DNA of 64,000 nucleotides, taken from Candidatus Kapaibacterium sp. (GTDB lineage: Bacteria; Bacteroidota; Ignavibacteria; Kapaibacteriales; UBA2268). Location of the stretch: the NCBI GenBank assembly GCA_965140345.1, contig OZ223197.1:79481-143480 (forward strand), read 5' to 3'. The notes under the pieces were generated by a model that saw nothing but the letters and a program-made list of their open reading frames with translations, was not told where the DNA came from and did no database searches. Position numbers and translations under genes: made by a program. The number at the start of each line of letters is the position of its first letter. Positions within the stretch are counted from its first letter, which is position 1. Below, piece by piece: positions 11,583-54,000 of the stretch.

Positions 11583-11626
11583 GATTAAAGATACTGCCAG
11601 GATGGCACTAAAACGAAAGGAATTCT

Positions 11627-13069: not shown

Positions 13070-13082
13070 GAGGTATTAAAAA

Positions 13083-14078: not shown

Positions 14079-14096
14079 TACCAATAAATTGCCTAT

Positions 14097-14927: not shown

Positions 14928-14936
14928 TGAGGAAAA

Positions 14937-29391: not shown

Positions 29392-29402
29392 AGGTAATAG
29401 AA

Positions 29403-29891
29403 ATGGCACAAGTAGAAAACTTGGCACAAAACCAAACAGCCACAGCCAATAATATCGTAAATAAGTACATCTGGTGGGCTGCCGGAGGTGGTGCGATTCC
29501 ACTTCCAATATTTGATATTGCAGCAGTAAGTGCTGTGCAGTTGAAAATGCTAAAATCACTTGCAGAGCATTATGAAATCGAATTTAAGCAGGACTGGGGT
29601 AAATCCTTCATTGCTGCTTTATTGGGCGGTATCGCTGCAGATCAATTAACTCGCAGTACAATCACTAGCTGGGTTAAAGCTATTCCCATCGTTGGCATAG
29701 TTGCAACTCTTTCAATGCCTATTTACTCAGGAGCAATGACTTACGCTGTTGGTAAAGTATTTATTCAGCATTTCGAATCAGGTGGTACTTTCCTTGATTT
29801 TAATCCTGATAAAGTAAAAGCTTACTTCGCAGAAATGTTCAAAGAAGGCACTCAAAAAGGTGCTACTGCAACTGCTACAAAAAAAGCATAA
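29403..29891 (+). CDS. Hypothetical protein with DUF697/YcjF-like glycine-rich membrane-associated motif
   Basis: WAAGGGAIPLPIFDIAAVSAVQLKMLKSLAEHYEIEF resembles DUF697 core; 12 bp after the serine hydrolase gene; domain name recalled from memory, not searched. Confidence 0.45.
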   Translation: MAQVENLAQNQTATANNIVNKYIWWAAGGGAIPLPIFDIAAVSAVQLKMLKSLAEHYEIEFKQDWGKSFIAALLGGIAADQLTRSTITSWVKAIPIVGIVATLSMPIYSGAMTYAVGKVFIQHFESGGTFLDFNPDKVKAYFAEMFKEGTQKGATATATKKA

Positions 29892-35900: not shown

Positions 35901-38900
35901 TATGCCATTGGGAGTACTTGCCGGAAAAGCTGAATTCCTTGATTATATTGATGGAGGAAATTGGGATTTTGCTGATAACTCTGTACCTGAAAATGATATA
36001 ATATTTTTTGGAGGCACTTTTTGTAAACATCCTCTTACAATGGCTGCGTGCAATGCAGTATTGAAAAAAATAGAAAAAGAAGGGGACGAGCTATATAACA
36101 GACTAAATAGTATGACTGCTGATTTTGCAGATAAAGCGAATAAGTTATTCAAAGAACTACGAGTTCCCTTGACTTGTACTTACTTTGCATCTCAGTTTCG
36201 CATAGATGGTCAAAACGAATACAGCTTACTTTTAAAACCTATTGAGCTCGATATATTCTTCTACTTGATGATATACAAAGGTGTTTATTTCTGGGAAAGA
36301 AAGGTAAACTTCTTCTCCACTGAAACATCTAAAGAAGATGTAGAATACATCCTGAAAGCGATGCGCGAAGCTCTTACGGAAATGATTGATAATGGGTTCT
36401 TTCCTGATGAAACTAGAAAAATATCTCCAATTAAAATAATGGAAGCTTCTACATCTCAAAAGAGAATGTTCCTATTAAGTCAGTATGAAGGTGGAGAAAT
36501 AGCTTATCATATCACACTTCCATTTTTAGTAAAAGGCAAACTAGAAACCAATAAACTTGAAGCAGCTATAAGCAAAATTGTTGATCGCCATGAAATATTA
36601 CGTACTAAATTTTATCTGAAAGATAGTAAGATAATAAGCGAAGTAGTTGATAATTATGATTTTAAATTGACTCATTTTGAAATAGAAGATGATTTACAAA
36701 GTGGAATAAATAAGTTTATTCAAAGCTTTGATTTATCTTCATTACCACTATTTAGATTTGGTTTGGCTAAGATAAATGAAAACGAGCATCTACTTGTTTT
36801 GGATATCCATCATATTATCTTCGATGGTCTTTCTATTGCTGTTCTGATAGATGAATTGTGCAAGTTCTATGTTGGTGAAGAAGTTGACTATCAGCCAGTA
36901 CAATTTAAGAGATTTTTGAATTTAGAAGAAAAGTATTTTGGCAGCAAAGATTTTCAAATCGATAAAGAATATTGGCTTGAAAATCTAAAAGATTTGCCAG
37001 TAGCCGCTGATTTACTTCATGATTTTAGCAGACCACCAAAAACAACATTTGAAGGTGATCAGTTACATTTTCAAATAGATTCTGAATTAACAACTAAGAT
37101 ATTTAAATATTCTAGAGAAAAAGGAATTACTCTAAATACCGTACTTCTAAGTGCTTATGCCTTGATGTTAAATAAACTATCCGGTGCAGAGGATTTTGTT
37201 ATAGGTTGTCCTGCTTCTATTAGATCAATAGATGATGATCTTGATACTGCAATTGGTCTGATGGCTAATACAGTTCCTCACAGAATCAAATTGGATAAAA
37301 TTCAAAAGTTCTCAGAATTTGCTCAAAAGCAAGCTATACAAACAACTGAAAATTATGAGCATTCCATATATCCAATTGAAAAGATTATTGAAGACCTTGC
37401 TCTTGAAAATTATGGCAATAGGCATCCTTTGTTTGATTCTCTTTTCATTTTTGAAGCAGCTGATAGTAGGCTTTTTGATATAGAAGGACTTAGCTTTGAA
37501 AGATATAAATATCAGAAACAAACAACAATGTCCGATCTGGTATTTGAAGCTATAAAAGAGTCCGGTGTTATAAATTGTAGTATTGAATATGATAAGAATC
37601 TATTTGAAAAAGCTACGATTCAGAGATTTATAGTTTATTATAATAATATTCTTTCTCAGATAATATCTGATAACGATGTTTCAATTCAAGATGTTAACAT
37701 AATTCCTGAAAAAGAATATCAAATACTAAAATCCGGATTGATGGATTATAATCATGAGGCAAAACTAGAATCAGCTTTAGATATATTTACAAAAAATGTA
37801 GCTAATAATCCTTATAAAAAAGCTGTAATTACCTCTGATAAAACTATTCTTTATAAAGATTTAGATAAATTATCTAATTCCATTGCTTATCATATTCAAA
37901 ATAATATCAACAGAACAGATGCAAAAGTTGCATTGCTCTTGGATAGAAATGAATACTTAATAGCAGCTATTCTTGCATGCTATAAACTTGGAGTTCCTTA
38001 TATTCCATTAGATAAAAGTACTCCTCAAGAACGCAATGAGTACATTTTGCAAGACTCTATGGCTGATTTGCTTATCACCGAAGATGATATGAAAATATCC
38101 ATTCCACAACTTCATTTGAGTGGAATTGATTTTTCTGAAGATCACATTGTAGAGTATAATTCTGATTTAAATTCTCTAGCGTATATCACTTATACTTCAG
38201 GTTCTACAGGAAAGCCCAAAGGTGTAATTATCCGACAAGAGAATATAGTTGCGTTTGTAGATAACTTTGATAAAGTCTTTAATTTCCAGAGAGATGAAAA
38301 AATTCTTGCAGTTACAACTGTCTCTTTTGACATCTCGAATCTTGAAATTATCTGCTCTCTACTTTACGGAATGACAGTTGTTCTCGCTTCTGACGCTGAA
38401 ATCAATAATCTAAATCTGCTCAAGGAATTATGTCACATAAACCATATTGAGAATATTCAGTTAACTCCCAGCCGCTGCAATCTTTTATATCAGGAACTAG
38501 GCAAACCATTCTTAACAAGCTTTAAAACAATTCTTGTTGGTGGTGAAGCAATGCCTAAATCACTGTATAATGAACTTAAACACTTCAAAAATACCAGAGT
38601 CATAAACGTTTACGGGCCAACAGAAACTACTATTTGGTCGAGCTCTAAGCTGATTAATGATAGTGAATTGAATATCGGTAGAGCCTTAGTCGGAGAGAAA
38701 ATCTTTATATTGGATCAAGAGAATAATCCTGTACCAATCGGCGTCAAAGGTGATATATGTATAGCAGGAACAGGAGTAGGAAATGGTTATTATAATCGCA
38801 AAGATCTTACAAAAGATAGATTTATAAAAGCTGATTTTATTGATGATATAATCTATAAAACAGGTGATATAGGAAGGATCAATAATAACCTTGAAGTGGA

Positions 38901-41900
38901 GATTTTTGGCAGAAACGATAACCAGATAAAAATCAGAGGTTATAGGGTAGAACTTGAAGAAATTGAAAATATAGCAAATTCGATTAGTGGTGTGCAAAGT
39001 GCAGTTTGTAAACTTGAGAATGACTCTACATTAGCAATGTTTTATATAGGGATTATAACAGAGCAGGAGCTTAAAAAAGAGCTTAGAGATAAGCTACCTG
39101 CATATATGCTACCAGCATATTTTACCAAAGTTGAGAATTTTCCACAAACTCCAAATGGAAAAATAAATCGCAAAGCATTAAAGTCAGAAATAAAGAATGA
39201 AAAGATAGAGTATTTAGATAAGCAATTGAATAATAAAGAATCTAAGTTTATTGAAATACTGAAAGAAGTTTTAGGTTTGGATTCAAAAATATCTCTCGAT
39301 TCAGATTATTTTGAGATAGGTGGAGATTCTATAAAGTCTATAAAACTAATCTCAGCTTTGTATAAAGAAGTAATAGAAGTAGATTTTAAAACTCTTTTCA
39401 CAGCTGACAGTATAGCTGAAATCATTCAAAAGGCTACATTTAAAGATAATATTAAAGATGATAATGAAATAGAAATATCTGATATGCTTGACTTGCTACC
39501 AATGCAGGAAGGTATGCTCTTTGAATCATTAGGTAAAGATAAATCTATATATCACGAGCAGCTATCATTCAGTCTTCAAGGGGATTTAGATTTCAAGAGA
39601 TATAAAAATGCCTGGAATAAAGTTTTAGGTCATTTTGATATTTTCAAATCAACTCTGCAAACAGATGAGAATTATAAATATAAACGCAAAATAAATAATC
39701 ATATGACAGGCAAGGGATTTATCTCTGAAAATAGTGATTTCGAAGTACTTAAACGCAATGATTTAGAGAATAACTTTTCTATTGAGAATGGCGAACTATA
39801 TAGATTGTATTTAAATAAACGCAATGATATCACTGATGTTATATTCAGTTATCATCACCTGATTTTAGACGGCTGGTCTTTGACAATTCTTTTTGATCTG
39901 ATACGGAAATTATATAAGAATCCAGAGTATGATATCTCTGAGATTCCTGATACATATTCTCAAATATCTCAAAAGATAATTAAAAATAACGCTAGTGTGT
40001 CTATTCAGGACGCCACACAATCTTTACTTGGATTAGAGAATTTAAAAGAAACTAAACTCTGTATTCAATCAAATGACATGTTAGAAAATATAGAATCTGT
40101 TTCGACTACTCTAAATGTAGTAACTCTAGATAAGTTAAAAGATTATGCTACTAAGCAGAAAGTGAGTTTGCAAAGTATTTTACTGGGAGCTTGGACAAAG
40201 CAACTAAGCATGCAAAATCAGTCAGATACAGCATGCTTTGCTTTAAGTATTTCAGGAAGGAATTACTCATATCCTGATATTGATAAAGCAGTCGGTTTGT
40301 TGATGAATACATTACCTATGAAAATAAATACTGATAATAATATCAATACAAGTATAAAAGAAGTACATGCAAAACTAGCTTCAGTATTGGATTATCAGCA
40401 TATTTCTTTAGCGGAGATTATTGCTAACTTTGATAACAAAAATATATATGATCATATAATTGTGATCGAAAATTACCAACCTACTGATTTATCAGTTTCA
40501 GATACAGTAAAAGTAGAAAATATTGATTTTTATGAGAATACAGATACTCCTGCAGTAGTTTATTTCTCAATAGAAGATGGTATTATTATACGTATAAATT
40601 CTAAAACTGCTGATAAAGCAAGTTTAGAAGCATTTTTAGAATCTTATAAATCTCAACTGCTTGCTATCACAGGAGATAATAAGGACAAAGGATTACCTGA
40701 AAAAGATATATCTAAACAAGTTATCTCATTATTTGAAAAAATACTAGAAGTAAAAAATCTTAGTTTAAACAGCGATTTCTTTGACTTTGGCGGACACAGC
40801 CTTAAGATTATAAGACTTCTGACAGCTATGTACAAAGAATTTAATTTTAAGATGGAAGTGGAAGAACTTTATAAAAATCCTACTCCATTAAAAATCGCAA
40901 GTTTAATAGAGAAAGCTTCAAATACAGATTTATCAGTTACTCAAGAGATATATCCATTACCTCCTAAAGAAAAGTATGATTTATCTTATGCTCAAAGGCG
41001 ATTATGGCTCTTTGCAGAACGTTTTCCTGAAAATACATCTTATAATGTTTTTGGTAATTTAATTTTTGAAGGTGATTTGGATATAAATGCTTTTGAAAAA
41101 ACTATTAGAACAATCCTTGAGATAAATCCGATTTTTCGAATAGCTATCGATAATGAAGGAGGTATGCCTTCTCAAAGAATTATGGCAAATGATTTTGTGT
41201 TAAAGGTAAACGAATTTGAGAATAAAAAAGAAATAGAAGAGTATGTAGAATCTTTTTCTAGAACAGAGATGCAGCTTAATAAAGGCAATCTATTTAGAAT
41301 AGAGCTGATTAAGTTGAATCATAGTAAATATATTTTCCTTTTTAATGCTCATCATATAATTTTTGACGGTTGGTCAAATGATCTGTTACTGAAACAAATA
41401 CAAACAATATACAGAGATATAGTAAAAGGACAAGCAATTGATATTCAAACTGGCTCTATAAACTACTTTGATTATGCTCACTGGCACAATCAAGGCGTTA
41501 TGAACGGAAAATTTCATAGCCAGAAATTGTATTGGCAGAATCAACTGCAAGATATACAGGAAATATCTATTTTAAAAGGAGATCTTTCTACCGAAATAAA
41601 TATTCCTGCTCTCAGCATATACAAAGAGCTAAAACTCAATGAACTTATAATATCAAGAAGATATTCTAAATTTACCATTCTTACTGCTGCAGTTACTATG
41701 CTTATCTCAGCTTATGAAAATAGAGATAAGATTATACTTGGAATCCCTGTATCAGGCAGAACCCCACAAATAGAATTATCCTCATTAATGGGGTATTTTA
41801 TCAATACTTTACCACTGGTTGTGGATATAAATAAAGAATCCGGAGTGGAAGATTATTTGGAAGAAATTACTGAGAAAATCAGCAACATAAATTCTAATCA

Positions 41901-42303
41901 ATTATATCCTCTCGAATTGCTTGATGAGCTAAACCAGAATGATGATATGGCATTAAACAAGCTATTTAATGTTATAGTTAACAGTTTTGATAGCAATCTT
42001 GATAATTTAAAACTAGATAATATCAGAATAACTGAATATCCTGTAAAAGCAAATCAGAGTAAATACGACTTGCAATTCTACTTTGAAGAGAAAGAAGAAG
42101 TAAAACTCCTAATTGAATATAGTTCAAAGATATACAGCTCTAAGTTTATAGATAAATTGACTCAAAAACTTGAAACAATACTAAATATGATGCAGGTCTC
42201 TCAGATTAAAATAAAGGATATTTTAAATTCAATATCTGAGCAAGCTTTATATAAACGAGATGACTTTTTAAGAGACATAGACAATATTGACGAGGAATTT
42301 TAA
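29992..42303 (+). CDS. Hybrid fatty-acyl-AMP ligase / PKS / aminotransferase / NRPS megasynthase (iturin/mycosubtilin MycA-like): AL-ACP-KS-AT-ACP-AMT-C-A-PCP-C-PCP-C
   Basis: Approximate nt ranges: AL 29992-31600 (FSSGSTGSPKGV, YGLAEATLAV); ACP ~31640-31840; KS 31860-33130 (DTACSSSL, EAHGTGT, NIGHTEAAAG); AT 33430-34350 (GHSTGEYAA); ACP ~34560-34780 (GMDSLTL); class-III aminotransferase 35150-36420 (GSEAIMVAIRVARA, PLP-Lys TYGKVIGGGMP); C 36440-37720 (HHIIFDGLS); A 37750-39180 (YTSGSTGKPKGV, NVYGPTETT, YKTGD, IRGYRVELEEIE); PCP ~39300 (GGDSIKSI); C 39470-40690 (HHLILDGWS); PCP ~40790 (GGHSLKII); C 40950-42303 (HHIIFDGWS). Uninterrupted 4103-aa ORF. Confidence 0.95.
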   Translation: MKNLIELLANIRNSSKGITFYTSTGTSEFYSYQYLYLSSQSRLQHFNQNNIDSSFQAVFQISSDKNFIESLWACILGGITVVPLPLADSKESEQKLRNILDLLDNPIILSDSDAIIEDYDAIDVSETFVESEIELEFKSQNPLLIQFSSGSTGSPKGVIVSHENLISNLESMRTTLEFRKDEVFLSWAPLTHSSGMILAHLNAVRGDYNQIQIERQAFISNPLNWIYLTDKHKATFIFAPNFGYKYFLSALDKKVNYEWDLSSVRYIMNGSEQISAEIANEFTYTLSKYRLNSKAMTTIYGLAEATLAVSCESIYEELQYLNVNRNSINLGGSIEVSKDDKNSLKLVSQGKAVANTQIRIFDEEVLSDNMVGEIQVRSDSVISSYYKNPTATESLLTPDSWLKTGDLGFLRDGKLYVCGRQKELIIINGINYYPDDIERQLASLIDISQNHIIVSSKINETSGTEEIVCGVASERDLDVESIKKNFIAKYGIVISHIRKIESIPTTSNGKKQRIKFAKDFIIEHDKTDNNISINNLDLWQIRDVIIKVAEKFVESNFDSNKNFALQGFNSIKTVEFVSDLSKILNINLDAFVVFNNPDVQSLSNYISSKMSYLEAKKDISEDQNYEDIAIIGIDCRFPKAKNADEFYRNLISHIDCISEIPKSRWDVSKIADSKIKEIPNYGGFLSDFDLFDNEFFNILPIEAKSLDPQQRLLLETTIHALEDANIKIEDIRNSDCGVYVGIANSDYAAVEAKSSELQKITPYSFTGYTPSTAAGRISYFLGLHGPNLAIDTACSSSLAALHYASRGIQNKECKLAIVSGVNLILSPEMNIGLYEMGVLSEDGRCKTFDKKANGYVRSEGCATLIIKSLKQAEEDGDRVYGVVKASALSHDGASNGLTAPNGVAQVKVMQKSLGIAKLHAKDINYFEAHGTGTVVGDLQELNSISELCGKIEPHQKVGAVKSNIGHTEAAAGLAGVIKILKAYEKGTLPGNLHFNHLPENSHVDISDSNIVSKNIDIFELLSEANSDKLRASINSFGYSGTNVNLILEQYPNANIKTKVTHSSNAIRVLPLTAKTSESLDKTMQAYSELLNKEAIHIDDLIANLELFRDKYKHRAAIVSTNSNIIDILSDPTSSKIKYKVLKSSSITESKGIVFTYPGGGAQRLKMGQELIQKDSVFADNMLKCDKLLSNYLNTSIIDIINNNKEKLGKLEFAQPALFAIEYSLSQMFVSYGLTPQAVIGHSTGEYAAACIAGIISLEDAVKMISVRAKLMDSIDTKGKMVAVYTNSETVGKYLTDYQKYVSIATINSSENVVISGSSEKVDEIVQKIKADGIEFKELKISQASHSPIMEEIIDPYREAIKYIEFKEAKIDYYNNITGKKLEKGTILDAEYWCNHILECVNFAASLQNIREDGFHIFLELGPSPVLTGVGLQDYPDDLFISAFAKDFDEYEQIQRVLGELYVNGIDLSFSKIYKIEQFNKIELPKYQFSQKRFYQDPNHGLYKQNNQIYQTVTSIPEQVKMKTSRNYKNEILEIIADKTGLEKEQLDINTGFFQMGMDSLTLVKMRQEINKKYAISVSMTDLVKNYDTVSKLSEFVSSNMPEEPEVIENSTYEPVQPLQNHQQTSSNQNVSYVESIIQQQMQIMQQQLNLLQNSAQVISEPVQQKKVKKQSKPTNFRSLKLDGDNLSVEQEKFINDLIEKYNHKTKSSMEYAQKHRKHLCDWINTLSFRFSLKKMSYPFVSSRSEGGYVWDLDGNKYIDIANGYGVHFFGHRPKFVEEAILQQIDKGFELGPQSAIVGETAELLARLSKNERVTFCNTGSEAIMVAIRVARAKTGRDEIVIFGGSYHGTFDGVLAVPDDDGDSRPVSIGVPEGMVENVKVLDYGSDEALEYIKIKSQNIAAVICEPVQSRKPHLQPKEFIKELREITQNSGTTLIFDEVVNGFRISAGGAQEFYGIKADLVTYGKVIGGGMPLGVLAGKAEFLDYIDGGNWDFADNSVPENDIIFFGGTFCKHPLTMAACNAVLKKIEKEGDELYNRLNSMTADFADKANKLFKELRVPLTCTYFASQFRIDGQNEYSLLLKPIELDIFFYLMIYKGVYFWERKVNFFSTETSKEDVEYILKAMREALTEMIDNGFFPDETRKISPIKIMEASTSQKRMFLLSQYEGGEIAYHITLPFLVKGKLETNKLEAAISKIVDRHEILRTKFYLKDSKIISEVVDNYDFKLTHFEIEDDLQSGINKFIQSFDLSSLPLFRFGLAKINENEHLLVLDIHHIIFDGLSIAVLIDELCKFYVGEEVDYQPVQFKRFLNLEEKYFGSKDFQIDKEYWLENLKDLPVAADLLHDFSRPPKTTFEGDQLHFQIDSELTTKIFKYSREKGITLNTVLLSAYALMLNKLSGAEDFVIGCPASIRSIDDDLDTAIGLMANTVPHRIKLDKIQKFSEFAQKQAIQTTENYEHSIYPIEKIIEDLALENYGNRHPLFDSLFIFEAADSRLFDIEGLSFERYKYQKQTTMSDLVFEAIKESGVINCSIEYDKNLFEKATIQRFIVYYNNILSQIISDNDVSIQDVNIIPEKEYQILKSGLMDYNHEAKLESALDIFTKNVANNPYKKAVITSDKTILYKDLDKLSNSIAYHIQNNINRTDAKVALLLDRNEYLIAAILACYKLGVPYIPLDKSTPQERNEYILQDSMADLLITEDDMKISIPQLHLSGIDFSEDHIVEYNSDLNSLAYITYTSGSTGKPKGVIIRQENIVAFVDNFDKVFNFQRDEKILAVTTVSFDISNLEIICSLLYGMTVVLASDAEINNLNLLKELCHINHIENIQLTPSRCNLLYQELGKPFLTSFKTILVGGEAMPKSLYNELKHFKNTRVINVYGPTETTIWSSSKLINDSELNIGRALVGEKIFILDQENNPVPIGVKGDICIAGTGVGNGYYNRKDLTKDRFIKADFIDDIIYKTGDIGRINNNLEVEIFGRNDNQIKIRGYRVELEEIENIANSISGVQSAVCKLENDSTLAMFYIGIITEQELKKELRDKLPAYMLPAYFTKVENFPQTPNGKINRKALKSEIKNEKIEYLDKQLNNKESKFIEILKEVLGLDSKISLDSDYFEIGGDSIKSIKLISALYKEVIEVDFKTLFTADSIAEIIQKATFKDNIKDDNEIEISDMLDLLPMQEGMLFESLGKDKSIYHEQLSFSLQGDLDFKRYKNAWNKVLGHFDIFKSTLQTDENYKYKRKINNHMTGKGFISENSDFEVLKRNDLENNFSIENGELYRLYLNKRNDITDVIFSYHHLILDGWSLTILFDLIRKLYKNPEYDISEIPDTYSQISQKIIKNNASVSIQDATQSLLGLENLKETKLCIQSNDMLENIESVSTTLNVVTLDKLKDYATKQKVSLQSILLGAWTKQLSMQNQSDTACFALSISGRNYSYPDIDKAVGLLMNTLPMKINTDNNINTSIKEVHAKLASVLDYQHISLAEIIANFDNKNIYDHIIVIENYQPTDLSVSDTVKVENIDFYENTDTPAVVYFSIEDGIIIRINSKTADKASLEAFLESYKSQLLAITGDNKDKGLPEKDISKQVISLFEKILEVKNLSLNSDFFDFGGHSLKIIRLLTAMYKEFNFKMEVEELYKNPTPLKIASLIEKASNTDLSVTQEIYPLPPKEKYDLSYAQRRLWLFAERFPENTSYNVFGNLIFEGDLDINAFEKTIRTILEINPIFRIAIDNEGGMPSQRIMANDFVLKVNEFENKKEIEEYVESFSRTEMQLNKGNLFRIELIKLNHSKYIFLFNAHHIIFDGWSNDLLLKQIQTIYRDIVKGQAIDIQTGSINYFDYAHWHNQGVMNGKFHSQKLYWQNQLQDIQEISILKGDLSTEINIPALSIYKELKLNELIISRRYSKFTILTAAVTMLISAYENRDKIILGIPVSGRTPQIELSSLMGYFINTLPLVVDINKESGVEDYLEEITEKISNINSNQLYPLELLDELNQNDDMALNKLFNVIVNSFDSNLDNLKLDNIRITEYPVKANQSKYDLQFYFEEKEEVKLLIEYSSKIYSSKFIDKLTQKLETILNMMQVSQIKIKDILNSISEQALYKRDDFLRDIDNIDEEF

Positions 42304-44158
42304 AATGTGCGGAATTGCTGGAATATTTGACCCTAAAACAAAAAGCTCTTTTAATACTAAAACTTTAAAGAGAATGGCTGATAAGATAGTACATCGTGGA
42401 CCGGATGATGATGGCTATTTTGTGGATAGTATGTGCGGACTTGCATTCAGAAGACTTTCAATTGTAGATTTATCCACAGCTGGTAATCAGCCGTTTTATA
42501 ACGAAGAAAAGTCAATTGTATCAGTTACAAATGGCGAAATTTACAACTATCCTGAACTTAGGAAAGATCTTTTGGCTAAAGGACACAAATTAAATTCTAA
42601 CTGTGATACTGAGATAATAAATCATCTTTATGAAGAGTATGGAGATACTTTTGTAGAAAAGCTTGACGGTCAGTTTGCAGTAGCACTTTATGATAAAAAC
42701 CTGCAATCCTTGCTTCTTGCCAGAGATTTTGTGGGAGTAGCACCTTTGTTTTGGACTAAGCATAATGGTGTTATATATTTTGCTTCAGAGATAAAAGCGA
42801 TATTAGCTAATCAAGATATAACACGAGAGATTGACCTGACTTCTCTGGATTCTATGTTTACATTTCCATCAATTGTTTCGCCAAGAACGATGTTCAAAGG
42901 TATTCACTCATTAAAGCCGGGACATATTCTAAAAATCCATTCTGATGAAGCTAAAGAATTGAAATATTACGATTTAGACTATCCACAGGAAATAGATTTA
43001 GATTCAGAAAAATCTGTTGATGAGCATATAGAAAATATTGATTTTCTACTTGGAAAAGCTGTTAAAAAAAGATTGCAGGCAGATGTTCCTGTGGGCTGTT
43101 ATATAAGTGGTGGACTCGATTCTTCTATAATATCATCTCTCACTCGTAAAGAATTGTCAAATAGAGACCTAAATTCATATTCTATTCTTTTCGATGATAA
43201 CAAAATAGATGAAAGAAAATATCAAAGAATGATGTCTCAGCAGATTGCTTCCAATCACAATGAAATAGAATTCGATTGGCAGAGCATTAGCAATTATCTG
43301 CAAAAAGCTGTGTACCATGCGGAAACACCTCTTAAAGAAACATATAATACCTGTTCACTGGCACTTTCTGAAAAAGTGAATGATTCAGGATTAAAAGTGA
43401 TTCTAACAGGTGAAGGAGCTGATGAGATTTTTGCAGGCTATGTAGGCTATAGATTGGATTTGGAACGTGAGCCTGAAGAATTAGAACCTGAAATAATCGA
43501 AGATCAGGCTATTAGAGAAGATTTGTGGGGAGATTCGCAATTTATATACGAAAGAAGCTTTGTCGAGCTGAATGAGCTTAAAAATGCGATTTATGGAGAT
43601 AATATCGTTTCTTCGCTTAATGATTTTAATGCAGCATTCTCAAAACCTGTAAATAAAGAATATTTGCAGGGTAGACATATAAATCATAAACGCTCTTATT
43701 TAGATTTCAAACTAAGAATTTCTGATCACTTAGTTGCTGATCATGGCGACAGAGTAACTTTTGCTAATTCAATCGAAGGCAGATATCCATTTCTTGATAA
43801 AGATCTCTTAGATTACACAAGAAAGATACATCCTAAGTATTTAATAGAAAATGGAATAGAGAAATCAATTCTAAAAAAATATGCTGCTAAGATTGTTCCT
43901 GATGAAATTAGGAATAGAGAAAAGTTTGCATTTGTTGCGCCGGGTAGCCAATATCTGCTTCAGCATAATTATGAGTTTGTATCAGATTATCTTTCCTATG
44001 ACAGTATAAAAAGTGCAGGATATTTTAATCCTGCCACCATAGAAAGACTCAAAAAAATGTATTTAAGGCCGGATTTTTCGATAAATCAAACATTTGAAAA
44101 CGACATTCTGATGATAGTTTTGACTTTTAATATCTTATTAGAACAGTACAAAATATAA
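42287..44158 (+). CDS. Asparagine synthetase (glutamine-hydrolysing) family amidotransferase (AsnB-like)
   Basis: N-terminal Ntn Cys MCGIAGIF (class-II GATase), PP-loop SGGLDSS, 623 aa; start overlaps megasynthase stop; embedded between NRPS genes. Confidence 0.85.
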   Translation: MTRNFKMCGIAGIFDPKTKSSFNTKTLKRMADKIVHRGPDDDGYFVDSMCGLAFRRLSIVDLSTAGNQPFYNEEKSIVSVTNGEIYNYPELRKDLLAKGHKLNSNCDTEIINHLYEEYGDTFVEKLDGQFAVALYDKNLQSLLLARDFVGVAPLFWTKHNGVIYFASEIKAILANQDITREIDLTSLDSMFTFPSIVSPRTMFKGIHSLKPGHILKIHSDEAKELKYYDLDYPQEIDLDSEKSVDEHIENIDFLLGKAVKKRLQADVPVGCYISGGLDSSIISSLTRKELSNRDLNSYSILFDDNKIDERKYQRMMSQQIASNHNEIEFDWQSISNYLQKAVYHAETPLKETYNTCSLALSEKVNDSGLKVILTGEGADEIFAGYVGYRLDLEREPEELEPEIIEDQAIREDLWGDSQFIYERSFVELNELKNAIYGDNIVSSLNDFNAAFSKPVNKEYLQGRHINHKRSYLDFKLRISDHLVADHGDRVTFANSIEGRYPFLDKDLLDYTRKIHPKYLIENGIEKSILKKYAAKIVPDEIRNREKFAFVAPGSQYLLQHNYEFVSDYLSYDSIKSAGYFNPATIERLKKMYLRPDFSINQTFENDILMIVLTFNILLEQYKI

Positions 44159-44168
44159 GGGGAAAAGT

Positions 44169-45020
44169 ATGAAGGTGATTATATACTCTCTAATAATATC
44201 AATGTTTTACATAGTCGTTTTAAAAGCAGATGATAATAAAGAATCTCATCCTAATGATTCACAATGGTGGCTAAAAAGCCCGATGGATAATCCTGAATTA
44301 TATAATCAGACTCTTTACCATGTGGAAGGATCATATTCTTTTACAAATATGACAGGTAATATTGAAGGTAGTGTTCATAAAGGTACTCTCTTGAACTTTC
44401 TACGCTATAATGACTTTACATTTCATTTTAATATGATGGTTGATAAGTATAGAATAACTACATATTATGACAATTCAGGAAAGATTGAGTCTGAGAAAAC
44501 TGTTACTTCAGATCATCAAATAGCTGAGTTTGCTGTCGACTTTAACCTCTCTAAATATTTTAACATCGAAGGTGGAGTTATTTGGGAAAAAGATCAAAAA
44601 CAATCTGTGCTTGACAGATGGTCTTATTATGCAGGTCTTGGATTTAATCATCACTTTGATAATCACTATCTCGATTTTATTGTAGCAGGAGGCATGGTTG
44701 ATATAGACTATGATATACCTTCCTATATTCTAAATCTATTTGATGTTCAAAAAGAACCTGATGCTTATTTGTTCTTAATACAGAGTTACTCCTGGGCTAT
44801 CACAAAGGGAGTAATGTTTAAAGAAAAATTTCAATTTTTCCCAAATCTGTCTGAAACTAAAAGATATAGATATGGTCTTGATGTTTCAATGATCTTTAAT
44901 GTTTGGAAATCCTTGTCTGTTATGGTAGAACATATTAGAAATTATGACAACGATGCTAAAAATATTGAAGCGTACAGCACTGACACAAAAACTCTTATCG
45001 GTATCCAACTGCAATATTAG
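44169..45020 (+). CDS. Probable outer-membrane beta-barrel protein (DUF481-like) embedded in the BGC
   Basis: Signal peptide MKVIIYSLIISMFYIVVLKA; alternating aromatic/hydrophilic strands; C-terminal ...TLIGIQLQY. Confidence 0.5.
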   Translation: MKVIIYSLIISMFYIVVLKADDNKESHPNDSQWWLKSPMDNPELYNQTLYHVEGSYSFTNMTGNIEGSVHKGTLLNFLRYNDFTFHFNMMVDKYRITTYYDNSGKIESEKTVTSDHQIAEFAVDFNLSKYFNIEGGVIWEKDQKQSVLDRWSYYAGLGFNHHFDNHYLDFIVAGGMVDIDYDIPSYILNLFDVQKEPDAYLFLIQSYSWAITKGVMFKEKFQFFPNLSETKRYRYGLDVSMIFNVWKSLSVMVEHIRNYDNDAKNIEAYSTDTKTLIGIQLQY

Positions 45021-45035
45021 AAACTGAGGCAAATA

Positions 45036-48000
45036 ATGAACAAGAAAATATATTACACGGTTTTTGACTCTATAGCAAAGCAATATCCGAATAATATTGC
45101 TATTGAAGAACAAAACAGAACAATTACTTACCGGGAATTAAAAGAAAAGTCTGATCAAATAGCGGCACATATATTAAACCTGAATATTGGGCTATCCAAA
45201 GTAATAGCTATATCTATTTCTGAATCTATAGAATATGTTGCAACAGCTCTTGGTGTTATGAAGTCAGGCAATATTTTTATGCCATTGGATTTAAAACATC
45301 CGCATGAACGATTGAATAGAATTATAAAGAAAACTTCACCGGAGCTTTTAATATATAATGAAGTATCAGTAGTTAATAGATTGATACATAAGAGTATTAG
45401 CTATGATGCATTGCTCATGGATGTTGTTAATAATACCTTGCCTGAAATGTCAGGTGAAGAACCGTGTTATATCATTTCTACATCCGGTTCTACCGGAGAA
45501 CCTAAGTCAATATTAGGAATGCACAAAAGCTTTTCCCATTTTATGCACTGGGAAAGTAAAGAGTTTGAAATAAGCGAAAATGATAGAGTACCTCTGATAG
45601 CTCCTACTACTTTCGATGTGAGCTTCAGAGATATATTTGTTCCGCTTATGAATGGGGCGACTTTAGTTATTCCTCCAATTGATATTAAAAAAGATATAAA
45701 AGAATTATGTAAGTGGTTGGAAGAAAAGAATATTACATTGCTTCATATAGTGCCTTCTATCTTTAGAATGATTACTAAGATTGCAGAAAAAGATCAACAA
45801 TATAAGTTCAATAATCTTAAGCATGTTTTACTTGCAGGCGAACCTCTTTACGGAAGAGATGTTCAAGCATGGAGGAATGTATTTGGATCTAATACAGAGC
45901 TGATTAATCTATACGGCCCTTCTGAAACTACCCTGGCAAAAATTTTCAACAGACTTGGTGAGAAGCAATTTGAAGACAATAGAATTATCCCACTTGGGCA
46001 ACCAATAAGTAACACAGCAGTTCTAATTTTAAATAGAGGCAAACTTTGCGATATAGGTGAGCAAGGTGAAATTTACATAAAAACACCATTCCGTTCTTTG
46101 GGATATATAGGAGATACAAAGTTAAATGGTGAGGTGTTTGTACAAAATCCTTTAAAAGAGGAAGCAGATATAGTTTATAAAACAGGTGATATGGGTAGAT
46201 ATTTACCGGATCACTCTATCGAATTTATTGGTAGAATCGACAGGCAGATTAAAATCTCAGGAAATAGAGTTGAGTTAAATGAAATCGAATCCGCTTTTAA
46301 AGATTTTGAAGCTATTGATGATGTTATAATTATTCCTCAGAAAGATTCTGATAAAAATATTCGTCTATGTGCTTATTACACAGCAAAACATGAAATTAAT
46401 CAGTCTGAATTGAGATCTTTTTTAAGCGAAAAATTGACTGATTATATGATGCCGTCTTATTTTGTTGAGATGAAGGAATTTCCTCTTAACTTCAATGGCA
46501 AGATAGACAAAAAGGCACTTCCAAAACCTGAAGATATGCTTTATGAGAAAATTAAGTTTGTAGAAGCTGATTCAGAAATTCAAAAGACTTTAGTTCAAAT
46601 ATGGCGAGAAATATTCGAAATATCCAGAATTGGAATAAATAATAAATTTACTGATTTTGGTGGCAATTCTATGCTTGCCATAAAACTAATTGCAAAAATA
46701 TATCAAACATTCGGTAAATCAATCAGTATAAAAGAGCTTTTTGAAGATGGTTCAATAAAATCAATATCCGATACAATTTCTATTGATAATATCACTGAAA
46801 TTTCTATTGCAAAAGCTGTAAAGAAGGAAATGTACAAATTGTCATTCCAACAAGAACGACTTTGGATTTTATCACAAATTGAAGAAGCAAATGCTTCGTA
46901 TAACATTGCTTCAGCTTATAGTGTAAAAGGAAGCTTTGATGTTGGATTATTTGAAAAAGCTATAAATTTGGTGCTGAATAGACATGATGTGTTCAGAACT
47001 TCATTTCATGCTCTAAATGGGCAGCCTTTTGCAAAGATTCAGGATTTCGTAGATTTTCAAATTGATGTAGAAGTTTCACAACATCGTAATTTAGAGCAAA
47101 CGTTATCTAAAGAATCAGCAATCCAGTTCGATTTGACTCAAGCACCTCTTTGCAAGTGTAAAGTCTTTCAATTGTCTGAGGAAGAGAGAATTCTTTTCTT
47201 TAATATACATCATATCGTTGCTGATGGGAATTCATTACGTTTACTTGTAAAAGAAATAAATGATGTATATAAGCAATTGAAAAACAATAGTATTACAGAG
47301 TTTATCGATGATAGATTAAATTATGTAGATTACGCTGAATGGCAACAAGAATATTTGAAATCAGAAGAAGCAAAAGAATTCCACAACTTCTTTAGAGATA
47401 AGTTAAATGGTGAGTTGCCAATATTGACTCTACCTACCGAGTATGCCAGAACTAATTCCAAGTCTTATAATGGAAGTAGAATTAATTTAGCACTGGATTT
47501 TGAAACTACACAAGCATTAGATAGCATTTCGAACGATCTGTCTGTATCTAAGTTTACTGTGTTTGTGGCTGCAATGAACTTAATATTTAGAAAGCTTGCT
47601 GGCACAAATGATATAATTACAGGGACAGTAGCAAAAAACCGTTCATTGTCGCAATTAGAGAATATGCAGGGGTATTTCTCTAATACTCTGCCACTTAGAG
47701 TTAAAATTGACCGAGAAAAGCCTGCAAATGAATTCATCAGTCAAGTAAAAAAAGAGATATTATCAACACTTGATAAACAAATCTATCCATTTGATAAAAT
47801 CATTTCTGAATTAGATCTTGTTAGAGATTTTTCCAGAAATCCTGTGTTTGATGTGATGCTAATGTACCGAGAGAATGTGCAGGAAGATTTAAATATTCAG
47901 GGTGCTGAAATTCAAGAAATAGAAATTCCTGAAAGTCTAAGCAGAATTGAACTTGCATTTGAACTCATAGAAGCAGGTGATGATTATAAACTGGAAATAT

Positions 48001-51000
48001 CTTACAATTCTGATCTTTACTCAGAAGAACAGGTAAGAGAATATCAAAAATATTTTTCTGAAATACTAAAACAAATTTCAGTAAATAATACTAAAAGAGT
48101 TAAAGATATTTCGCTTCTATCTCAGCAAGAAACCTTAGAGTTGATTTCTAATTCTTATAGAAAATCTGAATATTCTTATCAGCAAAATATTTATAGTTTG
48201 TTCGCAGATACAGCTACTAAATATTCAGATTATAATTCTTTAAGTAACGAAGATTCTACAATAACATACTCAGAACTAGTTTCAGATGTAAATAAGATAG
48301 CAGAGTTTTTTGTTCAAGATGGCATCAAAGAAGGTGATATTGTAGCAGTTAAATCAGGTAGAACAGGAAAGCGTGTGGCTATTGTTCTAGCTCTATGGAA
48401 AATCGGAGCTGCATATCTACCGATTATAGATTCACTTCCTCAGGAAAGGATAAATTTTATATTAGCTGATTCAGGAGCTAGGTATTATGAAGAAAATTCT
48501 ATCACAGTGCCTTCTAAAAGCTCAATAGAAATAGCAATATCAGACAAAATGTTAAATCCTGCTTATGTGATCTATACTTCGGGTACGACCGGCAAGCCAA
48601 AGGGTGTAAAGGTTTCACATGCAAGCTTCCTAAATCAACTTCTGCACCAGAAAGAAGAACTGAAAATTGATGAAAAATCTGCAGTTTTGCAATTCCACGA
48701 ACATTCATTTGATGGTGCGATGGTTGAGCAGTTTCTTCCTATGATTGCAGGTGCTAAATCAGTAATAGCTACAAAAGAAATTATTGAAGATATAAGCAAC
48801 ATATACAGCTTATGTGAAAAAGAGCAAGTTACTCATGCCATTTTCCCGCCTTCGTACTTAAGCTTATTAGATATTTCCAAGCTTAATTCTTTGAAAATGA
48901 TTGCTACTGCCGGCGATGTGCCTAATATAAAAACTATCCAGGCTGTTCTTGATGCAGGAATTGAATATTATAATCTTTATGGACCAACTGAAACTTCATG
49001 CACTACTTCGATACAAAAAGTCGATCATATTGAACCTGAAATACCTTTGGGTAAACCTGTTTATAATACTTATATGTTTATAGTAGATGAGGATATGCAG
49101 GTACTTCCGCAGAGAGCTATGGGCGAAATATGTATTTCAGGAGCAGCACTAAGTCTTGGTTATATCAATAATTCTAATGACGATTCTTTTACTAAGTTAT
49201 CTTCATTAAATAATATATCTGTTTATAAAACAGGCGACGTAGCTAAAGTTGATAAAAACGGCAATTTGGTTTATATCGGAAGGAAAGATAATAGGATTAA
49301 GATACGTGGTTATAGATTAGATCCACAGGAAATAAGACAAGAAATATTGAAAGAAAATTCAGTGGTAGATGTAGAAGTAATAGCTCATAAACAGCAGCTT
49401 AAGGCTTTTGTGAAGTCTTCCAATACTTTGGATACTAATGAACTCAAAAGTCATCTGGCAACTATTCTTCCAAATTATGCTATTCCTGAGATATATTTTG
49501 TAGATACTATACCTAAAAATGCAAATAACAAAACAGACTTTGATGCATTACTTAAGCTATCTGATTTTTACGATTATCAATCAATCGAAGATGAGCTAAG
49601 TGATTTTCAGTCAGAAGTTAGGCTTGTTTTAAAAGAAGTTTTGCCGATAGAAAATATAAGACTAGACGATAACTTCTTTAAGCTAGGCGGTCATAGTCTA
49701 CTGGCGATAAGCTTAATAAGTAAAATAAATGAGAAGTTTACCAGCGATGTTAAGATAAAAGATTTCTTTAAGAATCCGACATTGAGACATTTAGCAAGCA
49801 TTATCGAAGAGGCATCTGAAAAGAATATTGTAAAACTTAAAAAAGCTCCTGTTCAAGAATCTTTTGAATTAAGTTCTCAGCAAAAAAGGATATATTCAGT
49901 TGCAAAAATGGGTGGGGATCAGGCATATAATGCACCTATTGCTATTCGATTTGAGAATTTGGACATAGAACTTTTTTCTAGAGCTTTAAACAATGTGATT
50001 CAAAAACATCCAATGCTTCGTGCTAGGATCCAAGAACATAATGGTGAACCTTGCTTATTTATCAGGGAGCATTTTGAGTATACTCCTGAAGTATTCCTTG
50101 TATCTAATGTAAACAACAAAGCTATAACTGAGAAATTGGTGGACAAACTTTCTACTGATTATCTCAATATTTCAGATTATCCTCTTTTCAAAATCTCATT
50201 CATAAAAGATGAGTTCCAAAATTCAGTTATGATCTTGAATATTCATCACGTAATAGCTGATGGTATTTCTTTAAATATCTTTGTAAAAGATTTAACAAAA
50301 GAGTATAACCATTTGAAAAGCAATGTAGTAACAGTTGAAAGAAAAGAAAATTATATTTATTTAGATTATATTTATAATCAACAATATGAAGTTGAATTAG
50401 AGAGAAACAAGACAGCTAGGGAATACTGGAAAAACAAATTACAAGGTGAACTCACCGTATTGGATTTGCCTACTAAAACTGTTAGGTCACAAGTACAGAC
50501 TTACAACGGATTGGTAGTCCATTCAACTATTGATAAGAGAAATCTAAATAAACTGAATAGAATTGCAGGTGAGTTAGGTGTTTCAAAATTCTCCATGGCG
50601 GTGGCGTTAGTAAAAATCCTTTTAAGGAGATATACGGGGCAAAATGATATTATATTGGGCACAGCTGTTTCCGGTAGAGAATATAAAGAATATGAAGATA
50701 TTATAGGGCTTTTCTCAAATATTATTCCATTAAGGGATAATATTGAAAAATCAGATACGCTTGTGAACATAATTGAAAAAGTAAGCAAGACAATTAATGA
50801 AAGCTTTGAGTATCAAGCGTATCCATTTGAAAAAATGATTGAAGACTTAGCTCTAGAAAGAGACATGAGCCGAGGTGCAATTTTCGATTTTGCAATGACT
50901 TATGGTTATAAAGATGAAGCACAATTTGAGTTTGACGGAGTTAAAGCTGAGTATCTTCAAAATAAAGGCTATTACAGTAAATTTGATATATTATTCTCTT

Positions 51001-54000
51001 TCATTGAAAGTGATAATAAGCTTGATCTTGAATTGACTTATAATACAGATTTATATGAAGACAAGTTTATTGCCTCTATTTCAGGCCATCTAGAACAAAT
51101 AATAGAAGAGATCACAATCTCAATCAATCAGCCTGTAGATTCTATCAATATTCTGACTCAAAATGAATTGGATCAATTACTAAAATTCAATAAGACAGAG
51201 TATAAATACTCGGATAATTCCTCAATTACGGACTATGTAGATCAGATAGCAGAAAAATATCCTGAAAATACAGCTCTTACTCTAAAAGACAAAAGTATAA
51301 GCTATAAAGAATTGAAAAAACGATCTGATGTGATAGCTGCTAATATATTGAAAAATAATGACATTAGGATTGGTGATAATGTCGCAGTCTTTACTAAAAG
51401 AGATATTGATTTTGTACCGATAATGCTTGGCGTTATGAAAACAGGGGCTATATATGTTCCGATAGATGAAGAAACTCCTCTAATTAGATTGAAAAAAATC
51501 CTCAATAATTGCTCTGCAAAGATGTTGATAACTGATAAAATAATTGATGTCGATGTTCAGGTCGTAGATAAAAACAATCTTATAAACACTGATATATCTA
51601 TGATTCAACTAGCTAAACTTGAGTCCAAAACTCCTGCATATATAATTTACTCATCAGGAACAACAGGTGAGCCAAAAGGAATTGTTGCTACTCATTCCAA
51701 CTTGATCAACACAATAGAAGATCAGATTCATGCTTTTGAGATAGATACAAATTCTAAAGTGATGCAATTTTACTCAACTGCTTTTGATGCTTCTATGTTG
51801 GAAGTATATTTGGCTCTTTTTGCCGGTGCTGAACTTGTGGTAACCCCAAAAGAAATTATATCAGACAAAACAATGATAGAAAGCTATTTGCAAGAAAAAC
51901 AAGTTAGTTTTGCATTTTTCCCTCCTTCATATCTAAAGATATTGGATAAAGAAAAACTTGCTAATGTTAAGACCATAGTTACCGGAATGGAACCGCCGAT
52001 ATTAGAAGACGCTTCCTATTTTGCGGAAAAAGGAAATTATTTCAATATTTATGGCCCTACAGAAACAACTGTAATTTGCTCTTATCACAAAGTTGATCCT
52101 AGAGAGAATAATAATTCGGCTATTCCTATCGGTAAACCGATGCGAAATTATTCTATGTATATCATGAATGATGAACTTCAAATTCAGCCGATTGGATTTC
52201 CGGGAGAAATCTGCATAGAAGGTGAGGGGCTGGCTTTGGGATATCTTAACGATAAAGATTTAACTGACTCTAAGTTTAAAATCAATCCATTGACAGGCCA
52301 CAGGATCTTCTGTTCAGGTGATATTGGTAAAATGCTACCAAACGGCGATATAGTTTATCTGTCTCGTAAAGACAAACAGGTCAAAATAAGAGGATATAGA
52401 ATTGAGACCGGAGAAATTAAAGCTAATATTGACAAAATAGATGGAATAAGAGAATCTTATATTAATGTTATTGATGAAAATGGCAATAAAGAGTTAGCTG
52501 CTTATGCTATTTCTAATAGCTTGAAAGAGTCTGAAATCAGACAGAGACTAAAATCTATGCTTCCTCAGTACATGATTCCGAAATATATTAAGCTAATAGA
52601 TGTTATGCCTCTTACTCTAAACGGCAAGATTGATAAGAATGCGTTGCCAACTGATTTCTCAGATGAAATAGATAACAAACATGAGAATCAGGAACTTAAC
52701 GAAAAAGAGAGTATGGTACTTGAAATTTGGAAAAATGTTTTGGCAAAAGAAGTTATAGGAATAAACCGCAATTTTTTTGAACTGGGTGGTGATTCTATAA
52801 AAGCTATACAGATTTGCTCTCTATTAGCACAAAAAGGCTATTTAGCGAATGTTAGAGACGTTTTTTCACATAATACCATCAAAGATTTAGCTAGTGTTCT
52901 AAAAGCTAAGGAAACTCGAATTGAGCAGGATCTCGAACCCGGCATATATCCTCTCAGCCCTATTCAAAAATGGTTTATAGATCAAAACCATGGGATAGTG
53001 GATCATTTCAATCAGGCACAATGCTATGAATTTACTTCAAAAATCGATTCCGCTAAATTTAAAGAAGCTATTGATTTTGTAATGAAAAGGCATTCTGCCT
53101 TTAGAACAAAGTATATTAAAACTGAGAATGGGTACGCTCAAGAATTAATGGAATCGCCAACAGAATATAAATATTTTGAAGTGCTTGAACAGAAGTTTGA
53201 CAAAGACAACATACTGTCAATCTCAGAAGAGATGAATAAATCTATGAATCCTCAAAAAGGAGAGATGATTAAATTCAAGATTATCAGAGAAGAAAATGTT
53301 GATTATCTAATCATTGTAGCACATCACTTTATTATAGATGGTGTTTCATGGAGAATCCTAACACAAGAGCTAGAGACTGCTTATAAGGCTTTAGAATCCG
53401 GTTCCAAAATTTCCCTTCCGGAAGAATCAGATAGTTTTCAAATATGGACGCAAAATATTGAATCTGTGTTCAGTAGTAAAAAGCCTAATATTGAATACTG
53501 GAATAAATTTGAAACAAACGAATATATAGTTGAATTTCAACAAAAAGAAACGAAATTTTATACAGCTTCATTTGAATTGGATCAAGAATATACTCGCAAA
53601 TTATTAGAAGATTGCAACAAGGCATTTAGTACAGAGATAAACGATGTTTTACTAACAGCAGTTAATATCGGATTTGCTGATATGTTCCCTAAACATAATC
53701 ATATTGATATAATGCTTGAAAGTCATGGTCGAGAACATGATTTTAAAAATATAAATATATCCGACACAATTGGTTGGTTTACAACATTTTATCCTGTCTC
53801 TTTTTCGGTAAAATCTAATCTCAAAGAAAGCATTGTCGAAGTTAAAGATAAGCTGAGATCTGTTCCGAATAAAGGATTTGATTTTATTGCTCTAAAGTAT
53901 ATATCAAATGAGCTTAAGCATATTAAAGAACCTAAAATTACATTCAATTACTTAGGTATATTTAATGAAGTAGGAGAGTCTAGTCTGTTGAAAATAAAAG

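Follow-up and report, generated by a model that had tools for sequence, protein, structure and literature searches.

Nonribosomal peptide synthetase (NRPS) modules that contain a condensation (C) and a carrier (T or PCP) domain and have no adenylation (A) domain of their own are documented in the assembly lines for mannopeptimycin, capreomycin, syringomycin, WS9326A, ramoplanin and enduracidin (PMC8949500, PMC12400406, PMC7539972). A module of this kind, which we refer to as C2-PCP2, lies inside a hybrid polyketide synthase (PKS)-NRPS megasynthase encoded on a 64,000-nucleotide stretch of contig OZ223197.1 from Candidatus Kapaibacterium sp. (the window, to which all nucleotide positions refer). 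An earlier reading of this DNA, made from the sequence alone, had proposed an A-less C-PCP module at 39470-40920, and these coordinates match the C2 and PCP2 domains as we delimit them by Pfam, motifs and tblastn. The same reading had called such modules rare, which overstates the case given MppB, CmnI, WS9326A and syringomycin (PMC8949500, PMC12400406, PMC7539972).

In the mannopeptimycin synthetase MppB (C-A-T-E-C-A-T-C-T-E), as in the megasynthase described here, an A-T-C-T arrangement is internal to a single polypeptide, and the upstream A domain is taken to feed both carriers (PMC8949500). However, the A-less carrier of MppB precedes an epimerization (E) domain and its cargo is not Gly, whereas here a DCL-type C domain follows a predicted achiral residue and is succeeded by the C domain of a split module, with a loader that we infer. 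Likewise, the capreomycin protein CmnI is an A-less C-T module that has been proven experimentally to be served by CmnA-A1 (PMC12400406); CmnI is a separate protein loaded in trans, while C2-PCP2 is embedded between complete domains of a megasynthase, and although a structural search with the C2 model does retrieve the crystal structure of CmnI (9uay), the two are just 13–14% identical in sequence. Module 9 of SyrE, with its partners SyrB1 and SyrC, and the WS9326A system also place an A-less C-T module within a lipopeptide line (PMC8949500, PMC7539972), but these use dedicated, cluster-encoded stand-alone A(-T) proteins, none of which was found in the window cluster. C2-PCP2 works like the known A-less C-T modules and introduces no new principle, the service of several carriers by one A domain being already established experimentally. 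What sets this case apart lies in its details: a DCL-type C domain placed after an achiral residue, a site between a complete and a split module, and the replacement of a presumably ancestral E-DCL pair.

The comparison extends to the iturin family as well. Subunit A of the iturin and mycosubtilin synthetases (ItuA and MycA) has the order FAAL-ACP-KS-ACP-AmT-C-A-PCP-C and leads to a lipopeptide containing a beta-amino fatty acid; its terminal C domain is part of a module split over two proteins, and the iturin ring has a size of eight. With the A-less module counted, the product predicted here, a beta-amino fatty acid plus seven residues, would have the same ring size. In contrast to MycA/ItuA, this megasynthase has its AT in cis and an extra A-less C-PCP inserted, genes for an asparagine synthase and a DUF481 protein lie between the subunits, and the host is Gram-negative.

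Pfam, segment scans and motifs give the megasynthase the order FAAL-ACP-KS-AT-ACP-AmT-C1-A1-PCP1-C2-PCP2-C3, followed by a C-terminal tail ending ...NIDEEF (Table 1, where the domain limits are those of Pfam scans of sub-segments). Three Condensation, two AMP-binding (one the FAAL, one an NRPS A domain) and four PP-binding stretches were found in all, and the PKS section comprises a KS at amino acids (aa) 626-994, an AT at 1153-1432, an ACP at 1530-1596 and a class-III aminotransferase at 1738-2051. The sequence-only reading had seen a first complete C-A-PCP module with its carrier near 39300, followed by the motifs LLPMQEGML, HHLILDGWS and GGHSLKII and by a further C domain closing the protein, and each of these is where it was said to be: Ser3113 of PCP1 lies at about 39328, LLPMQEGML starts at aa 3168 (PMQEGML at 3170), HHLILDGWS occupies aa 3288-3296 (39853-39879), GGHSLKII is in PCP2, and the closing domain, C3, carries HHIIFDGWS at aa 3787.

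The absence of an A domain between the two carriers is observed by several routes. Pfam segment scans return Condensation only between PCP1 and PCP2, with no AMP-binding match even at E<=5, so that the check for a hidden or degenerate A domain that had been proposed along with the module came back empty, as did the search for A3, A5, A7, A8 and A10 core motifs, none of which occurs in the megasynthase outside aa 2736-3055. A six-frame tblastn of the 64-kb window with A1 as query finds the FAAL (30133-31530), A1 itself (37786-39171) and five sites from 45087 onward, and nothing A-like in 39171-45087. The 490 aa that separate the PCP1 serine from the PCP2 serine are instead occupied by a single full-length C domain, which covers positions 2-377 of the PF00668 profile (146 bits against a cut-off of 30.6) and whose residues 9-406, as query, align end to end with the condensation domain of SrfA-C (chain residues 8-423). 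The linker between C2 and PCP2 is about 8 residues long (GDNKDKG), and the junction, QLLAITGDNKDKGLPEKDISKQ, holds no A-domain remnant. An AF2 (AlphaFold2) model of C2-PCP2 (mean predicted local distance difference test score, pLDDT, 83.7) has both lobes of the C fold complete, and in it PCP2 forms a four-helix bundle with a pLDDT of about 90. PCP2 matches PF00550 and has the GGxS serine, by which it classes as a peptidyl carrier protein with predicted phosphopantetheinylation, and with C and T present and neither an A domain nor a remnant of one, C2-PCP2 classes as an A-less module. A stand-alone A or A-T gene was likewise absent from 28-64 kb of the window and from the orthologous and homologous loci. 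The sequence-only reading was correct that the window holds no free-standing A domain, yet the NRPS gene at 45036 opens with A-PCP, a point to which we return below.

Three orthologues of the megasynthase come from independent assemblies: one 95% identical and likewise 4103 aa long (L081/P0035; ENA ERZ21831251), one about 73% identical (L001) from the metagenome-assembled genome (MAG) CALNXW01, and one about 62% identical (L082; Logan SRR29257459), in which C2 is 53% and PCP2 66% identical. PCP1-C2-PCP2-C3 is collinear in the window and these three assemblies, and the alignment of C2-PCP2 contains only three single-residue indels. All four orthologues (the window included) keep HHxxLDGWS, VGLLMNTLP and GGHSL unchanged, the catalytic motif of C2 reading HH(L/M/S)(I/L)LDGWS among them. 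In the distant comparisons, synonymous divergence (pS) is about 0.7, that is, synonymous sites are saturated, while nonsynonymous divergence (pN) is 0.20-0.31 for C2, 0.12-0.20 for PCP2 and 0.15-0.23 for C1 and C3; by pN, the constraint on PCP2 equals that on PCP1. The retention of HHxxxDG and of the phosphopantetheine serine, together with a pN far below pS, indicates that the module is under purifying selection. It is conceivable that a mis-assembly or sequencing error removed an A domain, as NRPS repeats are prone to mis-assembly and a nearby gene of the window (23070-27744) carries frameshifts that its orthologue lacks; however, the same domain order and length recur in the window, ERZ21831251, CALNXW01 and SRR29257459, across identities from 95% to about 62%, and we regard such an artefact as having a negligible chance of being the explanation. 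The deletion artefact that had been named as fatal to the A-less module is excluded by these independent assemblies. The proposal that C2-PCP2 must be charged by an A domain elsewhere is supported by the lack of a hidden A domain, the four collinear assemblies and the purifying selection, and the evidence supports C2-PCP2 as a genuine elongation module without an adenylation domain, its function being predicted.

Outside this clade, word-based and full HMMER searches returned no relative of C2-PCP2 above about 33% identity, and none is present among 1.8 billion representative proteins. As no orthologue that retains the A domain was found, none can be used to deduce the cargo of PCP2. Exact-sequence matches to the window proteins were also absent, and the 95% relative surfaced through the representative search.

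As a separate observation, the nucleotide identity between the window (29992-42300) and L081 (10001-22309) is a mosaic, ranging from 87% to 99% in 600-nucleotide windows: PCP1-C2-PCP2 (38992-41391) is 98–99% identical, the flanking stretches 92% and 87%, and a housekeeping ABC-F protein is 100% identical between the two. These sequences suggest inter-strain recombination inside the NRPS gene.

Table 1. Positions of the megasynthase, its domains and the neighbouring genes of the cluster in the window.
Feature	Position	Strand	Basis
Hybrid PKS-NRPS megasynthase, 4103 aa	29992..42303	+	single uninterrupted open reading frame (ORF); Pfam; motifs
C1, LCL-like condensation domain	36439..37728	+	Pfam, 325 bits; HHIIFD at aa 2273
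A1, adenylation domain, aa 2599-3057	37786..39162	+	Pfam; sole megasynthase A domain besides FAAL
PCP1, aa 3085-3146, GGDSI, Ser3113 (nt ~39328)	39244..39429	+	Pfam segment scan
C2, condensation domain of the A-less module, aa 3163 to ~3570	39478..40701	+	Pfam, 146 bits
PCP2, aa 3576-3639, GGHSLKII, Ser3603 (nt 40798-40800)	40717..40908	+	Pfam PP-binding (PF00550)
C3, terminal LCL-like condensation domain (aa ~3660-4095) and tail	40969..42300	+	Pfam, 205 bits
Glutamine-dependent asparagine synthase homologue, 617 aa, N-terminal MCGIAG	42305..44158	+	Pfam; TIGR01536, 468 bits
DUF481 protein	44169..45020	+	Pfam; syntenic in L001, L081, L083 and in L086, L089
Second NRPS, 3078 aa, A-PCP-C-A-PCP-C-A-PCP-E	45036..54272	+	Pfam, motifs
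N-terminal A domain of second NRPS, code DVRHLALLA	45087-46511	+	tblastn, code alignment
125-aa ORF without family match, between second and third NRPS	54282-54659		
Third NRPS, 2232 aa, C(DCL)-A-PCP-C-A-PCP-TE	54670..61368	+	Pfam, motifs
Second Gly-code A domain, in third NRPS	56035-57417	+	code DILQLGVIW

Comparison with C domains of known subtype places C2 among those that act after an E domain. Specifically, its best sequence matches in the Protein Data Bank (PDB) are the N-terminal C domains of McyB, BacC, TycB1 and SrfA-C, all of them post-E, and no LCL structure is found among the PDB matches below E 1e-5. In a Foldseek search with the C2 model, the C domains of TycB and SrfA-C rank first, with a target-normalised TM-score of 0.80-0.81 to SrfA-C. 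Within the cluster, the closest paralogue of C2 in an all-versus-all BLAST is the N-terminal C domain of the third subunit (29% identity, 137 bits), which is itself a DCL domain because it is preceded by the E domain that ends the second subunit. In a neighbour-joining tree built from 32 C and E domains of the window and related clusters, C2 falls within the DCL clade (98.5% bootstrap support), and C1 joins its counterparts from orthologues and relatives. These comparisons show that C2, as judged from its sequence, belongs to the DCL clade. By position, however, C2 departs from that class, standing directly after PCP1 rather than after an E domain, with a donor whose C-terminal residue is predicted to be Gly.

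The sequence-only reading had also entertained an epimerization-like role for this part of the protein, and this finds no support. The dual E/C signature is an N-terminal HH[I/L]xxxxGD (Rausch 2007, PMC1894796); the N-terminus of C2 reads LLPMQEGMLFESLGKDKSIYHEQ, with no HH in any of the four orthologues, and the region where the signature would lie reads MLFESLGKDKSIY. The E-specific motifs (EGHGRE and a C5 of the RTVGWFT type) are also absent from C2, which has SISGRN...VGLLMNTLP, whereas the true E domains of these clusters carry EGHGR and form a clade of their own. A dual E/C or E-like C2 is therefore ruled out by motifs, and the predicted donor residue, Gly, is achiral.

The Gly assignment depends on the specificity codes, which we read by aligning the A domains with a GrsA fragment that returns the known code DAWTIAAIC. 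In order along the assembly line the A domains read DILQLGVIW (A1), DVRHLALLA, DGVIAALCT, DALFVGIVI, DILQLGVIW and DASTIAAIC, the last of which we take to be Tyr/Phe-like. The extended code of A1, DILQLGVIWK, is of Gly type and is identical in all four orthologues; the canonical Gly code is reportedly DILQLGLIWK (Stachelhaus, 1999). The variant DILQLGMIWK is listed as Gly-activating (PMC12283262). A match of A1 to the Gly module of LgrA in the PDB (451 bits) was dropped as proof of Gly specificity, given that this score sums two A stretches and that the unrelated DVRHLALLA domain scores 484 bits, so that the assignment is taken from the specificity code only. The closest paralogue of A1 is the other Gly-code A domain of the cluster, in the third subunit (41% identity, compared with about 30% to the A1 domains of relatives), which fits module shuffling within the cluster. 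For DVRHLALLAK we found no literature match; DPRHLALLAK, identical at 9 of 10 positions, is the code of Zmn16-A1 in the zeamine cluster, whose substrate has been predicted by software to be '2-aminoadipate' (PMC3547906).

We tentatively favour a reading in which PCP2 is loaded in cis by the Gly-specific A1 and the product contains Gly-Gly, although we place it slightly short of probable. The FAAL-ACP-KS-AT-ACP-AmT section would yield a beta-aminoacyl thioester, whose acyl group C1 would join to Gly on PCP1; A1, 450 residues upstream in the same polypeptide, would also charge PCP2, one A domain serving two carriers in an A-T-C-T arrangement; the DCL-type C2 would then condense acyl-Gly-S-PCP1 with Gly-S-PCP2. 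As the second NRPS opens with A-PCP, C3 is assigned from the gene order to a module split over two genes, of which it is the C half and which that A-PCP completes, and C3 would pass the chain to this next subunit. The three-subunit PKS-NRPS line as a whole would make an iturin-like lipopeptide of a beta-amino fatty acid and seven amino acids. In favour of A1 are its position next to C2-PCP2 in the same polypeptide, the fact that the nearest paralogue of C2 is a DCL domain with a Gly-module acceptor (sister in the neighbour-joining tree at 91.5%, besides the BLAST score given above), the kinship of A1 with the A domain of that same Gly module, the lack of a free-standing A domain in the cluster or the rest of the 64-kb window, and the precedents of MppB and of CmnI charged by CmnA-A1 (PMC8949500, PMC12400406).

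Several observations weigh against this reading and bear on two alternatives, the first concerning C2 itself. No other C domain of the cluster has diverged as far as C2, and none in the protein evolves faster: its rate is about 1.3-fold that of its neighbours by pN, although it is clearly constrained. A long branch also affects its sister grouping with the DCL of the third subunit. At some 15 columns that are nearly invariant among DCL domains C2 does not follow the consensus, among them those matching TycB1 Arg62, Arg67 and Trp202, of which most neighbouring C domains retain Arg62 and Trp202. Added to this are the lowest Pfam score among the C domains of the protein (146 bits; C3 has 205 and C1 has 325) and the presence of a dehydrating C domain (AmbE CmodAA) among the structural matches, all of which could mean that C2-PCP2 is not a normal elongation module and is skipped, acts as a structural spacer or has a role other than amide formation. 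We consider this improbable: none of the four orthologues varies in HHxxxDG, in the residue equivalent to Asn335 or in the PCP serine, PCP2 is constrained like PCP1, AmbE is a weak match in sequence, with 35 bits compared with about 100 for DCLs, and an upstream Gly gives nothing to epimerize or dehydrate. The loss of Arg62 and Trp202 was also considered as a sign of inactivity and set aside as not diagnostic; individual 'structural' residues of this set are also missing from C domains of the cluster that are presumably active, which makes the pattern one of divergence of C2 and not of demonstrated inactivity.

The second set of observations concerns the loader, to which no direct sequence pointer was found. 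With orthologues set aside, C3 scores best in BLAST against C domains placed after DVRHLALLA-type modules (139-163 bits; the top five all lie downstream of such modules, some of them from Chitinophaga), and PCP2 scores slightly better to the carriers of these modules than to PCP1. These preferences fit a cargo supplied by the A domain of the next subunit, DVRHLALLA, which would charge PCP2 in trans while docking at the C3 tail. In relatives, moreover, the acceptor of the terminal DCL is the DVRHLALLA residue, runs of this residue exist in the family, as shown by three A(DVRH)-T-C units in a row in Chitinophaga varians, and an A domain acting in trans and iteratively is proven for CmnI (PMC12400406). 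On the other side, C3 and the post-DVRH domains form a clade in none of 200 neighbour-joining bootstraps, C2 groups with the Gly-acceptor DCL and not with the terminal DCLs of relatives, and score differences are small for carriers as short as these. Loading by the next subunit is thus possible but rather doubtful; if correct, it would give a product with two consecutive residues of an unusual type, suspected to be acidic or amidated.

Loading of PCP2 by a free-standing A or A-PCP protein encoded elsewhere in the genome, perhaps with a shuttling acyltransferase, has precedents in SyrB1/SyrC for SyrE and in the trans A domains of WS9326A (PMC8949500, PMC7539972), and our search for A domains in the host covered the 64-kb window only. 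However, no such protein is present in the cluster (about 28.1-63.0 kb) or in its orthologous or homologous versions. To our knowledge, the trans loading partner lies inside the cluster in every precedent, and we regard this route as quite unlikely.

A third candidate is the adjacent asparagine synthase, which could either charge PCP2, through a beta-aspartyl-AMP caught by the phosphopantetheine thiol, or make its cargo by amidating Asp-S-PCP2. Its gene begins 2 nucleotides past the megasynthase stop codon, in presumed translational coupling, its Cys nucleophile is intact, it is kept in all orthologues, and the cluster contains no canonical Asn or Asp code. Yet the protein scores above the equivalog threshold that TIGR01536 sets for ordinary asparagine synthase, and other phyla have NRPS clusters that encode homologues at 54–55% identity; in four related clusters (L086, L088, L089 and L084), all of them without an A-less carrier, such a homologue stands at the equivalent position. 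That the synthase travels with the DVRHLALLA A domain and not with the A-less carrier makes it a poor candidate for the loader, and we know of no precedent for carrier loading by the asparagine synthase family. We therefore hold it to be very improbable; were it true, it would represent a carrier-protein-dependent path to (iso)asparagine in which no NRPS A domain is involved. The idea that the cis AT loads PCP2 with a malonyl group that is amidated afterwards, a chemistry of the OxyD or glutarimide type, was also considered and was rejected because the C domain requires an amine or hydroxyl acceptor; PCP2 is also PCP-like and not ACP-like.

Among the related clusters, we compared L086 (positions 2-9982), L088 (2503-9897) and L089 (2-9994), all from Proteobacteria-type MAGs, with 39244-42300 of the window. 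The megasynthases of all three read ...AmT-C1-A1-PCP1(GGDSI)-E(EGHGR)-DCL and end in an acidic ...[DE][DE]F tail. In L086 and L089 the asparagine synthase and DUF481 genes come next, followed in L086 by an NRPS whose first A code is DVRHLALLA. In Chitinophaga varians (L084/85), the asparagine synthase follows an A-T-C-A-T-C protein, and a single luciferase-like gene separates it from three A(DVRH[L/F]ALLA)-T-C units. Thus these clusters resemble the window in the succession of megasynthase, asparagine synthase, (DUF481) and an NRPS opening with a DVRHLALLA A domain; the AmT-C1-A1-PCP1(GGDSI) core is a further point in common for L086, L088 and L089, and the C-terminal tail pattern is common to all, L084/85 included. 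They differ in what stands in place of the window clade's PCP1-C2-PCP2-C3, with PCP1-E-DCL in L086, L088 and L089 and simply a terminal C in L084/85; an A-less carrier is absent from all of them.

As the distant clusters carry PCP1-E-DCL, C2-PCP2-C3 appears to be specific to the window clade, and by comparison of domain orders we infer that PCP1-E-DCL is the family default and C2-PCP2-C3 a derived, clade-specific remodelling. Elsewhere in the window and in the relative clusters, motif comparison finds the GGDSI core confined to carriers that precede E domains, and the GGDSI of PCP1 is probably a relic of a former PCP1-E arrangement. In the window clade, A1 would have turned Gly-specific and the E domain would have been lost, with a DCL-PCP-LCL block taking over its place.

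The order around the asparagine synthase is preserved across phyla (window 42305-46535; L086, L088, L089, L084/L085, L001 and L083): an NRPS ending in a C domain with the ...[DE][DE]F tail, then asparagine synthases that are 54–99% identical, often DUF481 next, and then an NRPS opening with the DVRHLALLA A domain; L089 additionally has an Asp/Glu racemase. We suspect that the DVRHLALLA residue is acidic, with a free carboxylate that the asparagine synthase would amidate. Stand-alone A-less C-PCP-C proteins of about 1000 aa also occur in other MAGs (L002:9956-14611, L004:5973-10813 and P0001), one labelled Aminicenantes and another labelled 'uncultured bacterium' without classification; the identity of these proteins to C2-PCP2, along its entire length, is no more than 22–23%, and in L002 and L004 the gene is followed by one for a B12-binding radical-SAM enzyme of about 570 aa.

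Immediately upstream of the megasynthase, 28111-29891 encodes a beta-lactamase-fold serine hydrolase (426 aa), which could be a trans cyclase or peptidase, and a DUF697 protein; DUF697 is also present inside the L086 cluster. An ABC transporter gene follows the third NRPS. Farther away, 375-15479 holds a Gram-negative flagellar block (FlgF/G, FlgA, FlgH, FlgI, FlgJ-like, FlgN, FlgK, flagellin-like and MotA) together with genes for a leucine-rich-repeat protein (3819-5186, minus strand) and an SF1 helicase. The frameshifted gene at 23070-27744 (minus strand) encodes a VWA/Ig-like protein with a sorting domain of the type IX secretion system (T9SS); L081 has it as one intact gene of 1557 aa, whereas the window copy aligns in four or more pieces spread over three frames, with several switches between frames, and is either a pseudogene or affected by indel errors in a repetitive region. 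The ABC-F protein is 58–61% identical to proteins of Kapabacteria and Ignavibacteria MAGs, and the flagellar block, the T9SS cargo and a GC content of 32% fit an Ignavibacteria/Kapabacteria-like organism.

The window thus documents a clean, conserved A-less module placed internally in its synthetase; the lineage it comes from is uncultured, flagellated and low in GC and belongs to the FCB (Fibrobacterota, Chlorobiota and Bacteroidota) group. Such a module would go uncounted by collinearity-based tools, leaving the predicted product one residue short. The window clade and the sister clusters with PCP-E-DCL form a natural before-and-after pair in which a residue would have been gained without the gain of an A domain, and this pair may be useful both for NRPS engineering and for correcting structure predictions.

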